Positions 1 through 3,264 of a DNA stretch of 20,000 nt are shown piece by piece. How positions within the stretch are numbered: the first letter of the stretch is position 1; each line of letters starts with the position of its first letter. Position numbers and translations under genes: made by a program. This DNA is from an uncultured virus (IMG/VR IMGVR_UViG_3300026549_000006). Lineage: Duplodnaviria; Heunggongvirae; Uroviricota; Caudoviricetes. The notes under the pieces were generated by a model, which saw only the letters and a program-made list of their open reading frames with translations, made no database searches and was not told the DNA's origin. The stretch is from positions 46,926 through 66,925 of IMG/VR virus record IMGVR_UViG_3300026549_000006; one strand, written 5' to 3'.

Positions 1-3
1 CAC

Positions 4-11
4 TATATTTG
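4..11 (+). promoter_or_regulatory. Bacteroidota sigma-A -7 element (TATATTTG), rightward early promoter
   Basis: Matches TAnnTTTG and is followed by CA; the -33 element would lie outside the window. Confidence 0.55.
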
Positions 12-92
12 CACCTGTGTTCGGATATAAACAACAAGTCCGAGTTCATCAGCGACGGAAGTTGATTCCCATCGGCACAATATAGTCACCTG

Positions 93-124
93 CAAAGATA
101 GGAAAAAACTTTTAAATCGCCAAA
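93..124 (-). promoter_or_regulatory. Leftward Bacteroidota promoter TTTG-N20-TATCTTTG
   Basis: CAAAGATA at 93-100 and CAAA at 121-124 on +, with a 20 nt spacer, match the consensus exactly. Confidence 0.65.
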
Positions 125-152
125 CAAAAACAACAAAATTATATAAACAAGA

Positions 153-374
153 ATGAAAATTACCGTCAACGACATCCGTAAAATCAAAGTAGGAAAGCCT
201 TTAATTAGGCTTCTCCCTGAGAGAAAAGAGTGTTACTACACGAGGAATTTGGTTACTTATGTAAACAATTCCTATCCCGTAGAAGGCTACCGCTACACCG
301 TCCACGTGACGAAGGAGAACATCGTGTCAATACAACTTGTAAAGAAAGACGAAAATGAAAACGAATGTGACTAA
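153..374 (+). CDS. Hypothetical phage protein (first early gene)
   Basis: 73 aa ORF with an A-rich leader; overlaps the next gene. Confidence 0.7.
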   Translation: MKITVNDIRKIKVGKPLIRLLPERKECYYTRNLVTYVNNSYPVEGYRYTVHVTKENIVSIQLVKKDENENECD

Positions 375-618
375 ACAAGCCGCTGTCAGCCGGTGCGACA
401 AACTCTTCCTTTCTCAGAAGGAAGCTGTCAAGTACATCGGGATGTCGAAAGACTGGCTCGAAGCACGACGCGAGGAGGGTGTCCTGCATTACTCCAAGGT
501 AGCCAACGCCATCTTCTATATAAAGTCGGAAATCGACCGCCTCATCACCGATGGAGCCTGCTCCGGCAGGCAGGCGTTTCGTCAGGAAGTAGCCAACAGC
601 AAATCCGAAGCCCTATGA
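355..618 (+). CDS. Excisionase-like helix-turn-helix DNA-binding protein
   Basis: FLSQKEAVKYIGMSKDWL...YSKV...IFY.KSEID fits the HTH_17/MerR-like excisionase pattern. Confidence 0.75.
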   Translation: MKTNVTKQAAVSRCDKLFLSQKEAVKYIGMSKDWLEARREEGVLHYSKVANAIFYIKSEIDRLITDGACSGRQAFRQEVANSKSEAL

Positions 619-746
619 TGACGTTTGTTATCCTCAGCTGCCTGGTCGAAGTGTTTTCCACACTTATGTTCGCAGCAGCGATCGTGTTGGGCATCCGCGA
701 AGTCATCCTCTACTTCCGCGACGTGCCGTTCCTCTTTAAGAAATGA
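615..746 (+). CDS. Small hydrophobic membrane protein (43 aa)
   Basis: ATGA overlap with the upstream stop; MMTFVILSCLVEVFSTLMFAAAIVLGIREVILYFRDVPFLFKK. Confidence 0.6.
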   Translation: MMTFVILSCLVEVFSTLMFAAAIVLGIREVILYFRDVPFLFKK

Positions 747-870
747 TATTAACCCGCCAGCCGTGAGGCCCGCATAACAAATACCGCCTGTAAAGGCAGG
801 CGTGCGGTGAAAGCCCGCCGACGAAAACTCATTAACCAATCCAACCCCGCCCTCTCGTGTGAGGGCTTTA

Positions 871-987
871 TGCCGCAGAAAGTCCGTAAGTGGATGCCAG
901 AATCAACTGGAGACAACCTACCACCATCCGCAGGAGCAACGGACAAGTAAATTTGGTTTGAGCGAGGGTTCGATTCCCCCTGCGGCA
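871..987 (+). ncRNA. tRNA-like structured RNA A
   Basis: Acceptor-like stem TGCCGCA/TGCGGCA; T-arm GAGGG-TTCGATT-CCCCC; nested internal stems GTCCGT/ACGGAC, GGATG/CATCC, CCAG/CTGG. Confidence 0.6.
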
Positions 988-1053
988 CTTTGGAACGTGA
1001 TACAGCCTTCATCTTAATAAGGCAGATTAGGCGCCTGCCCTGACGTTCCGCTC

Positions 1054-1063
1054 GTTCTTTGAC
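1054..1063 (+). promoter_or_regulatory. boxA-like antitermination element
   Basis: GTTCTTTGAC resembles the NusB/NusE boxA consensus (GYTCTTTAAC-like) and lies just after a stem GGAACGT/ACGTTCC. Confidence 0.45.
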
Positions 1064-1091
1064 TTCTTGAAACAAAAAATATCACTCGCTG

Positions 1092-1180
1092 GGAGGTGCA
1101 GTATGACTGCGCGGACGATGATTTACACTTTTAGCCATAATTACGAATTGTCCGTGAGCTGGGTAGCGCCAGCCGCCTCC
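1092..1180 (+). ncRNA. tRNA-like cloverleaf RNA B
   Basis: GGAGGTG/CGCCTCC closing stem, CAGT-ATG-ACTG arm, CGCGGACGA/TTGTCCGTG long arm, GCTGG-GTAGCG-CCAGC arm, then TTTTT. Confidence 0.5.
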
Positions 1181-1190
1181 TTTTTATATA

Positions 1191-1338
1191 TGGGAGCCCT
1201 CGGTGGTTTGAGACACTGAATCAAGAAAAGTATAACAAACCAGCATTCCAGTTCAGCAGTCCTGCCTCTTTAAAAGTTTTCTTGAGCTGAAGGGGCTGTG
1301 TAGGTCTCTACGGAGGAGTTCGATTCTCCTCGCTCCCA
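1191..1338 (+). ncRNA. tRNA-like structured RNA C
   Basis: TGGGAGC/GCTCCCA stem; T-arm GAGGAG-TTCGATT-CTCCTC; arms TCGGTG/CACTGA and TCAAGAAAA/TTTTCTTGA. Confidence 0.6.
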
Positions 1339-1345
1339 CAAAATC

Positions 1346-1449
1346 GGAGGAATGGGTACTGCGAAGTACAAGCAGAACCGCCGGACGAAACCTCCACGGA
1401 GTCCTCGACACTCTGTGACAGGTGTAGGGATTCGACTCCCCCTTTCTCC
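1346..1449 (+). ncRNA. tRNA-like structured RNA D (degenerate T-arm)
   Basis: GGAGGAA/TTTCTCC stem; GTACT-GCGA-AGTAC GNRA hairpin; GGGA-TTCGAC-TCCC; CCA follows at 1450-1452. Confidence 0.5.
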
Positions 1450-1571
1450 CCAAAAACCCGTGAGGGCGGTTCTCTTCTTTTATTACATTTTATATTCTTA
1501 TTTCATTTTGGTATTACAAGCCCGTGAGGGTGTTTTCCTGATTGACTTATTCATATTAATAGGTACATTTG

Positions 1572-1597
1572 GCCCACAGCGGTGGGCTTTTCATTTG
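1572..1597 (+). terminator. Possible intrinsic terminator
   Basis: GCCCAC-AGCG-GTGGGC followed by TTTTCATTT. Confidence 0.45.
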
Positions 1598-1721
1598 AAG
1601 TTTCTGTTTGTTTAATGATAAGTGCCAGCGGACAAAGGCTTTGAACCGATGAAGGCGGGCAATATACCCGCATTTTTCCGAATAACATTTTTAATTCATA
1701 TATGCAAACAAATAATTCTTT

Positions 1722-2084
1722 ATGAAACACCTACTCTTCACCTCCCTCCGCCAGTGGCGCATCTGCATGGCGGCAGGCTGCGCCAAGTTCCTATGGGGAC
1801 TATGGCGCATCGTCAGCGGCATCATCTTCGGCATCCTATCCGTCTTCTGGTGGATAGGACGGCTCGTCGAAGCCTTCTGCCGCCGTGAACCTATCGCAGC
1901 AGCCGTCATCGCCGTCCTGCTGCTCATCCTCTCGTTCGGGTGGCTCTCCACCTATGTATCAGCACGCACACACCTCACCACCGCCGAATATCAGCGCGAC
2001 TCCATCGGCTACGTCCTCGACCGCTACATGCAGGCATACGACTCCGTGGTGGTAGACGGCGACACGTTGAAATACCAAAACTAA
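1722..2084 (+). CDS. Hypothetical membrane protein
   Basis: 120 aa with two to three hydrophobic segments; phage-like codon use. Confidence 0.75.
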   Translation: MKHLLFTSLRQWRICMAAGCAKFLWGLWRIVSGIIFGILSVFWWIGRLVEAFCRREPIAAAVIAVLLLILSFGWLSTYVSARTHLTTAEYQRDSIGYVLDRYMQAYDSVVVDGDTLKYQN

Positions 2085-2090
2085 CTCTCT

Positions 2091-2390
2091 ATGCCGAAAT
2101 TACGCATCAACAGCGTGCTCAGCCACGAAATGCTCAGTACGTTAGACGACGACCAGCGACGTTCATTCGTCAAGGAGAACGCCGCTTTCATACTCACCAG
2201 AAGGACATCCGACAAAAAGGGGCCGCTTGTAGACATCGACGACATGAGAATCTACGACCTCGACATCGACTACCTCGTCTTCGACGCCCACTACAACACA
2301 CAGGGGCACCTCTATGCGAGCATCGAATGCCATCGCGTGAATGGTGAGATTGTAACCTCCGAACCCATTATAGATTACAAACATTATTAA
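2091..2390 (+). CDS. Hypothetical protein
   Basis: 99 aa ORF tightly packed in the operon. Confidence 0.7.
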   Translation: MPKLRINSVLSHEMLSTLDDDQRRSFVKENAAFILTRRTSDKKGPLVDIDDMRIYDLDIDYLVFDAHYNTQGHLYASIECHRVNGEIVTSEPIIDYKHY

Positions 2391-2404
2391 AAACCGAAAA
2401 AATT

Positions 2405-2680
2405 ATGATTAAAATCACATTTGAAATCAGCGAAGACTTTATTAACGAGAAAGCTGACATTACCAATCTTCCCGAAGGATTAACTGCATCAAGTGCTTTA
2501 AAATTTTTTGAAGATATGGTGAGTTTCACCTTTATTAAAGAGGCTATCAAATCAGGCACAACAGAGTTCTATGTAACTCCTGATAAATTAGGCGAACAGT
2601 ATATGAAGATATATAACCTATTTATAGGAGAAATATGTGCCCTTGCCGCCTTCTCCGAAACGGACAATAAAAAAGAGTGA
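2405..2680 (+). CDS. Hypothetical protein
   Basis: 91 aa AT-rich ORF; GTGA overlap with the next gene. Confidence 0.7.
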   Translation: MIKITFEISEDFINEKADITNLPEGLTASSALKFFEDMVSFTFIKEAIKSGTTEFYVTPDKLGEQYMKIYNLFIGEICALAAFSETDNKKE

Positions 2681-3264
2681 GCACATGTATGAATAGGATA
2701 ATAAAATTCAGAGGTAGAGTCAACGGCCAGTGGGTGTATGGCGACTATGCTCACGGCAGGTATATCAGTTGCGATGGAGTTCTTCACGATGTAGACCCAG
2801 ACACCATCGGTCAGTATTCGGGAGTCCACGACAAGAACGGCAAGGAGATATATGAGGGCGACATCGTAACGATGATGCGTACACCTGAAAACAAGAATAG
2901 GAAGGCCATGCTTACAAGGCACATCGTCACACCTTATTCCGTATTGGACTGGACGCTGAAATCTCTGACCAATGGCGTGTTGCCGCATTCAATGATGGGT
3001 TTCTCTGACAGGTGGAGTAGCTATAAGATGGAGGTAATCGGCAACGTCCACGACAACCCAGAGTTGACATACGAGGAAACGCTTCCACCGCCAAGGAGCA
3101 GAAAGAAAAAGAATGGCACTCTACAAGTGGAGTTCGTTGTAAAGGAAAACCCAAAAAGAGAGCCGTATATCGAGCGTTCCGGCAATAATGCGAAGGTCAT
3201 CTGCGAGGTAACACAAGAAGAGATGAATAATGCCGTCAATCAAGCAATAGACAGTAGAAAATGA
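2677..3264 (+). CDS. yopX: YopX family phage protein (alternative start ATG 2689)
   Basis: IKFRG...WVYG...TIGQYSG..DKNGKEIYEGDIV...EVIGNVHDNPEL hallmark motifs, plus a C-terminal extension. Confidence 0.85.
   Translation: MSTCMNRIIKFRGRVNGQWVYGDYAHGRYISCDGVLHDVDPDTIGQYSGVHDKNGKEIYEGDIVTMMRTPENKNRKAMLTRHIVTPYSVLDWTLKSLTNGVLPHSMMGFSDRWSSYKMEVIGNVHDNPELTYEETLPPPRSRKKKNGTLQVEFVVKENPKREPYIERSGNNAKVICEVTQEEMNNAVNQAIDSRK

Follow-up and report, generated by a model that had tools for sequence, protein, structure and literature searches.

The window, as we call the whole stretch of 20,000 nucleotides analysed here, sits at the end of the record of a complete 66,925-base virus with direct terminal repeats. 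The stretch was found in gut metagenome runs from 10 studies, mainly bovine. The phage is of a rumen Prevotella type and carries, among genes predicted to be early, the cassette of structured RNAs described below, and a relative of its HTH protein is present in a rumen Prevotella genome (L101). All features lie on the plus strand unless stated otherwise. Upstream of the cassette, an ORF at 355-618 encodes an HTH_17 (Xis-like) protein (PF12728, E = 2e-4, under the curated cut-off), which marked the slot in related phages; downstream follow genes for YopX, RecT, an exonuclease and replication initiation. This position between the HTH_17 ORF and the recombination and replication genes places the cassette in the predicted early arm. 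A −7 promoter-like element of Bacteroidota type at 4-11 (pattern match only, to what we take to be the consensus) is a candidate start of the early transcript. A second motif of this type, at position 100 on the minus strand, points in the opposite direction to that at 4-11.

Between the marker ORF and the first RNA unit lie an ORF for a hydrophobic protein of 43 amino acids (615-746, from translation; no Pfam family over the cut-off) and, by folding, an adjacent hairpin pair (784-818) whose motif recurs in related slots. The motif of the second hairpin was seen in nine of ten HTH loci. The pair was conserved in the majority of slots, L003 2880-2915 and L005 720-760 among them, with UGAAAG as second loop, and the second loop is the T-loop sequence in L008. 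Rfam gave nothing above cut-off for this pair, which could be a put-like antiterminator or an additional RNA family. Short GC-rich hairpins with a GUGA loop, possibly boxB-like, are repeated around the cassette (759-770, 849-866, 1456-1468 and 1519-1531); the last two, identified by fold and sequence, enclose an AU-rich stretch within 1456-1531. A motif at 1054-1063, found in 10 of 11 related slots, is presumably a boxA-like antitermination site. A terminator-like hairpin with a U run follows at 1571-1591 (consensus match only). The first ORF past the cassette (1722-2084) encodes a hydrophobic protein with no assigned function and precedes the YopX, RecT, exonuclease and replication genes. A tie of this ORF to the cassette was dropped, as an array lay directly upstream of it in only 2 of 13 loci. 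Run X2 carried 2405 additional bases at 1707-1721, right ahead of the same ORF, which indicates that the end of the cassette also accepts insertions.

A shared tRNA frame

As the original prediction had held, four elements, at 871-987 (unit 1), 1092-1180 (unit 2), 1191-1338 (unit 3) and 1346-1449 (unit 4), each carry a 7-bp acceptor-like stem on a T-arm-like hairpin. All seven pairs form in each acceptor helix (871-877/981-987, 1092-1098/1174-1180, 1191-1197/1332-1338 and 1346-1352/1443-1449), and the T-arm-like hairpin precedes the 3' strand of the acceptor in all four. The frame shows a T-loop variant in unit 2 and a mismatch at 1430 in unit 4. Fold z-scores for units 1 to 4 were −2.84, −3.54, −2.22 and −1.04, so that the fold energy of unit 4 alone is not above chance. 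A loose helix-on-hairpin descriptor applied to 850-1470 returned four ends, three of them true units and one spurious; unit 1 was missed because of an A-C mismatch. In 300 dinucleotide shuffles, the same descriptor never returned four ends and returned three ends once. Folding also revealed a fifth structured module, a three-way junction without T-loop, at 992-1049. The region around it (988-1091) had a fold z-score of +0.11, and its only homologue was found in the near-identical contig L001, where the first pair is altered on both bases.

It had been expected that tRNA scanners would miss the units, and this was borne out: ARAGORN called no tRNA gene and no tmRNA in the window, and an Rfam scan of 1-3000 gave three matches, every one under the gathering score, with nothing for RF00005 at E ≤ 5. 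The best match was a tmRNA-end fragment at 1292-1341. With 16 bits against a cut-off of 47, no G3-U70 and no tmRNA call by ARAGORN, tmRNA identity was rejected. G3-U70 was absent from the family A and B rows checked and from units 3 and 4 (row L082a was left out of the family A row inspection for length, D-loop GG and G3-U70). CCA is encoded by none of the four units, as in most host tRNA genes examined.

Other parts of the prediction had to be revised. A normal anticodon arm had been denied to all four units. The canonical arm (5-bp stem, 7-nt loop, U33) is indeed absent from units 1 to 3, but at 1398-1414 unit 4 forms a stem of 5 bp that closes a loop of 7 nt. The D/anticodon half, thought to be replaced, does have a family-specific interior, whereas a D-like hairpin is kept in units 1, 2 and 4. 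Nor are the units four variants of one mimic: judged from their relatives in other phage contigs, they are members of four unrelated RNA families, A to D. Profiles built without the window recovered units 1, 3 and 4 strongly and unit 2 weakly. GenBank phage records held no match to the region or to families A, C and D.

Families A and C

Model R1, from which the window had been left out, assigned unit 1 (871-987) to family A with 52.4 bits (E = 1.3e-12) and bounds at 871-988. The unit consists of an acceptor, an AAAG linker, a D-like arm, a short middle hairpin and a T-arm, and its D-like loop has kept GG and taken up an insert of 41 nt. A scan with a pattern that included the T-loop gave 16 matches, four of which were dropped as chance matches while 12, including three duplicates, were real. 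In the family A alignment of 13 sequences, with members from L011 and L021 included, 13 of 15 pairs were changed on both sides. Pairing amounted to 88.7%, compared to at most 49% in slid controls, and covariation to 0.643, compared to 0.186 in shuffles that ignore relatedness among the sequences, none of 500 reaching the observed value. Members typically measure 74-81 nt and have a D-like loop with GG. The frame accepts inserts at different arms, in the D loop in the window and at the anticodon position in L082. No Rfam family matched family A.

In the family A copies at L021 3773-3850 and L106 1501-1581, the UUCGA T-loop was swapped for GCGUUA or CCGUUA, and a loose end at 979 in run X20 also carried a substitute of this type; the GUAGCG loop of unit 2 may be a similar one. 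A hairpin element starting with GAUGACAGCC, sometimes repeated and without a match in Rfam, recurred just upstream of family A units in L036, L037, L046, L050 and L106.

Unit 3 (1191-1338) was recovered with 126.6 bits by a family C HMM built without the window and L001. Its parts are the acceptor, two hairpins, a hypervariable stretch (1234-1253), a long variable arm (1299-1312) and the T-arm. The two hairpin loops are complementary over 9 nt (1221-1229 and 1277-1285). These putative kissing loops exhibited no covariation, since both 9-nt strands were invariant in five of five sequences, as was the family core. In the acceptor, the T stem and the long variable arm, the sequence varied and pairing was kept. 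The hypervariable stretch, 13-23 nt long, had its own sequence in each copy, L001 included, and also differed in many read variants. Only 4 of 12 matches of the family C pattern scan were real, one of them the contig of L001, and the eight chance matches were dropped; for more members, 401 Prevotella and 401 order-level genomes gave matches at chance level only. In L058, L059 and L063, a tRNA-Arg(CCU) lies within the same 3 kb as family C.

Family B and the antisense question

Unit 2 (1092-1180) is probably an eroded member of family B. Besides its fold z-score, this assignment draws on a score of 17.7 bits (E = 0.007) with model R2, a model on which unit 1 scored 18.2 bits through the bare frame. 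The HMM gave unit 2 only 5.7 bits. Fourteen loop bases are identical between unit 2 and L010, and both D-loop GG and T-loop consensus are missing; membership is likely, not firm. The unit comprises an acceptor, a D-like hairpin, a long arm at the anticodon position, whose loop shows GCCAUAA (1134-1140), and the variant T-loop. In its relatives, acceptor, D arm and T-arm are normal, and the anticodon arm is opened into a large AU-rich loop. With anticodon loops larger by about 25-50 nt, these relatives scored 42-58 bits as RF00005. High-scoring hits to ordinary tRNAs or Rfam families, which the original prediction had counted as evidence against itself, were lacking for the units of the window and were obtained for these relatives, which speaks in part against the prediction. 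Among ten family B sequences without the window, 96.2% of cells were paired and all seven acceptor pairs were changed on both sides, which argues that the shape is kept and the amino-acid identity is not.

GCCAUA was invariant in 12 of 12 aligned family B rows, three of which had been found with the motif in the pattern. A motif-free metagenome scan gave 33 matches; GCCAUA was present in all ten that were tRNA-shaped, several of them repeating earlier lineages, and in none of the 23 chance matches. The family B copy of L101 carries GCCAAAA, and it shares a run with the loop UUGCCAA of the host tRNA-Gly(GCC). The motif allows three readings: a Gly anticodon loop, a CAU triplet, and a sequence complementary to a start codon followed by an Ala codon. 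The idea that it is always held as a hexaloop was dropped, as closing pairs were inconsistent across 16 rows.

The excised RNAs might be antisense regulators like C4 RNA of P1 and CI RNA of P4. In that case, family B loops would seed on start-codon regions with UUAUGGC, and family C would use its hypervariable loop as an exchangeable guide. The constancy of GCCAUA in the motif-free scan speaks for this, as do the complements of the family B loops, which read as an AU-rich leader, AUG and an Ala codon, and the finding that no start context was commoner among the ORFs of this phage than TTATGGC (3 of 47). C4 and CI are also RNase P substrates (PMC5499578, in its available part). The search for targets did not confirm the hypothesis, however. 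In the complete genome, the longest perfect complement was 10 nt to unit 2 and 13 nt to any unit, with G-U pairs unscored. A 16-nt complement occurred in 2 of 201 Prevotella genomes, compared to one for the control, and the GCCAUA-type seed matched 5 of 220 host ORF starts. No convincing site was present in the records cognate to L004, L006, L021 and L101, the best being an ORF start in the phage of L021 with two mismatches. Besides, the motif is also readable as a Gly anticodon loop. As none rose above chance, specific family B antisense targets were rejected. The loop of the host tRNA-Ala(GGC) was considered as a pairing partner of the motif as well; this tRNA was not among the 24 distinct tRNAs obtained from 30 of 50 loci. 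On the whole, we consider antisense regulation by the excised RNAs unlikely.

Family D and a possible role in translation

Unit 4 (1346-1449) is an eroded copy of family D, as detected by an HMM built without the window (30.6 bits, E = 1.5e-8). Besides acceptor and T-arm, the unit has an extended D-like arm, an anticodon-type arm and an extra hairpin. The anticodon-type arm had a stem of 4-5 bp and a 7-nt loop in eight of eight members, and the loop triplet was UUG in six of them, UCG in the window and CCG in L067. Unit 4 has C at 33 in this loop instead of U33, and a lengthened body. In an alignment of five rows, in which the other helices are out of register, the D-like stem was 100% paired with four of seven pairs doubly changed. 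For the whole structure, the count of doubly changed pairs was not significant, being reached by 210 of 500 shuffles, which ignore relatedness. D-loop GG is absent from unit 4, and position 1430 is A, as opposed to G in six of six DNA runs; RNA run X19 agrees with the window at this position.

It is conceivable that some units are aminoacylated and serve in translation or rescue ribosomes, be it as unusual tRNAs, as tRNAs with an intron or as tmRNA-like molecules. Such a use would be in line with the family B relatives that exceed the RF00005 cut-off, with the 7-nt loop retained in family D and with weak tmRNA-end matches on family A and C units. The variable triplets of family D, the missing G3-U70 and an acceptor identity that is not kept are, however, at odds with it. 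The inserts of about 25-110 nt did not match an Rfam intron either, with no Rfam intron family found on 1-3000 of the window or on the loci of relatives. Low-threshold ARAGORN intron calls were noisy and inconsistent between relatives. We regard a role in translation as very unlikely.

Turnover of units behind the HTH gene

Eleven related loci were found through the HTH protein (10 + 1), some of them of the same lineage (L003 and L004; L006 and L009), and their plus strand was scanned. Within 1 kb behind the HTH gene, 23 acceptor-plus-T-arm units were detected, spread over 11 of 11 loci; the remaining 55,773 bases of this strand contained none. The unit content of the slot varied among the loci, and true tRNAs occurred in it as well: Arg-UCU in L006, Lys-UUU in L007, Ser-GCU in L101 and Trp in L026 and L029. 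That true tRNAs share the slot in relatives makes handling of the units by tRNA enzymes likely.

The units might instead be cis-acting handles, at which cuts by RNase P and a 3' nuclease punctuate and stabilise the early transcript while the units, the boxA-like site and the hairpins control read-through into the replication genes. This explanation fits the location of the units, which follow the HTH gene and precede the genes for recombination and replication, as well as the boxA-like motif shared by most slots, the terminator-like hairpin at 1571 and the freedom of acceptor sequences to vary. It also fits a minimal unit in L034 (about 1365-1402), reduced to acceptor stem and T-arm with a 9-nt linker. 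A single handle would, however, suffice, and the interiors are kept per family. The same families were also found singly in unrelated gene contexts (L022, L037, L042 and L067). We find the explanation by cis-acting handles rather doubtful.

Units were lost as wholes. The near-identical L001 is without exactly unit 4, and its break falls in short repeats found at the 3' end of both unit 3 and unit 4. Six DNA runs were compared through joints with short sides of 24-89 letters: X7 and X6 had the joint 1338-1451, skipping unit 4 as in L001, X2 and X12 had joints that skip unit 3, X16 had a loose end compatible with loss of unit 3, and X9 had no joint. The breakpoints of these losses fall within spacers. 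Two RNA runs, X19 and X20, yielded one contig each (depth 2.5 and 2.2), for which DNA carry-over is possible. One of these contigs spans unit borders, RNA ends were not visible in either of these low-depth contigs, and neither run provided evidence that the cassette is expressed.

Free loss of units, the erosion of units 2 and 4 in the window and the closeness of family B bodies to a tRNA-Trp in the same slot of L026 could mean that the units are tRNA pseudogenes in decay, or selfish inserts derived from tRNAs, which gather in an intergenic slot that tolerates them. Compensatory stem changes and invariant new motifs across distant phages argue against decay, as does the erosion at 1430, which was absent from all six DNA runs, and a complete genome without reverse transcriptase. 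For A to D as families, this reading is largely refuted, and we hold it to be highly improbable. The compensatory changes in families A and B and the gain and loss of whole units rather uphold the predicted discrete, conserved tRNA-shaped genes in an early operon.

Further tRNA-framed elements were observed. At L005 443-627, about 110 nt are inserted into the anticodon arm of a tRNA frame that has no relation to families A to D. A short tRNA-shaped family with an 8-bp stem at the anticodon position and a 6-nt GGCCAU loop has members at L003 2594-2671, L004 4347-4425, L010 1561-1637, L073 742-821 and L094 583-662, most of which ARAGORN miscalls as tRNA-Arg(ACG). In a different phage, L032 carries on the minus strand (about 1360-1740) three tandem tRNA frames with enlarged loops that have a CAGCAA motif in common; the protein downstream of them looks like what we take to be DUF2828. 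A separate pattern scan gave 12 matches, from which three intron-type tRNA genes on contigs resembling eukaryotic viruses and one unrelated array were rejected.

Proposed role of the cassette

The analysis confirms that RNAs from four families, all built on a tRNA frame, form a cassette with swappable units. As judged from the alignments, selection acts both on the shape of the tRNA frame and on the family interiors, and the units turn over as modules. RNase P and the CCA enzyme recognise their substrates by the acceptor and T-arm, which is why the early transcript is probably cut into stable small RNAs. Somewhat below even chances, and thus tentatively, we propose that stable RNAs without a decoding function are released by host enzymes, and that each family uses loops of its own to bind host defence factors or to act as a decoy for them. 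The early position, the accessory-like turnover and the interchange with tRNAs all point to counter-defence by decoy or binding.

The four units would be co-transcribed from the early promoter, with the boxA site aiding read-through. Host tRNA-processing enzymes would then make the 5' cut (RNase P), trim the 3' end and add CCA. The excised RNAs presumably do not decode mRNA and presumably stay uncharged, the latter because families A and B are free to change their acceptor sequences. The frame would supply stability and the interior specificity. Families B and D might distract anticodon nucleases, family B with a Gly-type UGCCA run in an enlarged loop and family D with its 7-nt loop, mostly UUG. 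Families A and C, which have conserved non-tRNA motifs, might instead bind particular host proteins. Neither the long core that is invariant in family C nor the family A motifs look like nuclease substrates, so that B and D are better candidates for a decoy than A and C. None of the four families could be linked to a defence system or a partner protein. Units 2 and 4 lack elbow features (D-loop GG, a canonical T-arm), so that the window copies may be inactive.

A bolder version of this counter-defence reading is possible, if doubtful. Bacteroidales phages would possess a natural system for expressing RNAs on a tRNA scaffold, in which one constant early slot is filled with exchangeable RNA effectors. 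Every effector would be an RNA class of its own, new to science and matured by tRNA enzymes of the host, that inhibits a specific defence protein. Family C would carry a re-writable guide loop of 13-23 nt on an invariant pseudoknotted frame.

Comparison with known systems

Phage tRNAs offset the tRNA-targeting defences PARIS and PrrC. A phage tRNA-Tyr likewise offsets Septu and retron-Eco7, for which the available portion of PMC13096335 proposes a role as decoy or supplement. The cassette resembles these systems in that its slot holds true Arg, Lys, Trp and Ser tRNAs in relatives. Anti-defence phage tRNAs are canonical, however, whereas the units are not and three of four are without a usable anticodon arm. 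Families A and B resemble the engineered tRNA scaffold for RNA expression, a laboratory tool in which cargo is placed in a tRNA frame and of which the cassette would be a natural, evolving version.

Y RNAs (YrlA) are non-coding tRNA mimics and substrates of tRNA enzymes that are known to occur in phages (PMC4201824, available part). According to the same part, they share T and D arms with the units but are permuted (T arm, acceptor-like stem, D arm) and stand beside Ro60, while our units follow tRNA order. A Ro60/TROVE gene (PF05731) was absent from the one complete genome, compared to 2 of 14 control rings with such a gene, and Rfam gave no Y RNA match on the units. With neither Ro60 nor the permuted order, the units are not Y RNAs.

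C4 and CI pair with sites in their own genome. These small RNAs of P1/P7 and P4 are cut by RNase P from an operon transcript and, as described in what is available of PMC5499578, are without a T loop; our units have T-arms. With no own-genome target among perfect complements, the units are not of the C4/CI type. UG27 consists of variable structured-RNA arrays in Bacteroidota prophages that gain and lose single units; in the accessible part of its description (bioRxiv 10.64898/2026.09.22.753630), the units have one fold of about 135-167 nt and need a reverse transcriptase and two partner proteins, whereas four tRNA-framed folds are found here. A reverse transcriptase (PF00078) was not detected in the one complete genome at E ≤ 1, a search that a very divergent enzyme could escape. 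A UG27 array, or any other template array for a reverse transcriptase, was rejected on this ground.

A catalogue of viral RNAs lists 10,006 unannotated candidates (PMC10690425, available part); six contig ids and six motifs were absent from those of its tables that could be searched, and some of the families may still be listed unnamed elsewhere in the catalogue. The available parts of PMC5737381 and PMC9897764 contained nothing specific to the cassette or its families. A literature search that covered few subscription journals gave no description of families A to D or of such a cassette, and the combination of four families of structured RNA that share a tRNA frame in one cassette is apparently undescribed. 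If our proposal is true, counter-defence, whose known phage factors are mostly proteins or true tRNAs, gains an RNA layer, made up of tRNA-framed RNAs that do not decode and whose cassette shows the turnover of accessory genes. Gene finders overlook this layer, as ARAGORN calls none of the four units and the relatives of unit 2 would pass as ordinary tRNAs. The cassette provides four testable RNA families and natural variants with and without units 3 and 4.

RNAC and RNAD of T4 undergo tRNA-like processing and are the nearest analogue of the cassette, whose context fits RNAs of this kind. They were set beside it by description, the sequence comparison consisting of the negative searches of phage collections. 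As the units would be, they are small phage RNAs from a tRNA region, with a role given as unknown in the available parts of PMC3014915 and PMC9697503. T4 has two fixed RNAs, classed as late, whereas here unrelated families swap in one predicted early slot of temperate-type Bacteroidales phages. All in all, the cassette offers a handle on the role of stable tRNA-like RNAs of the T4 type.
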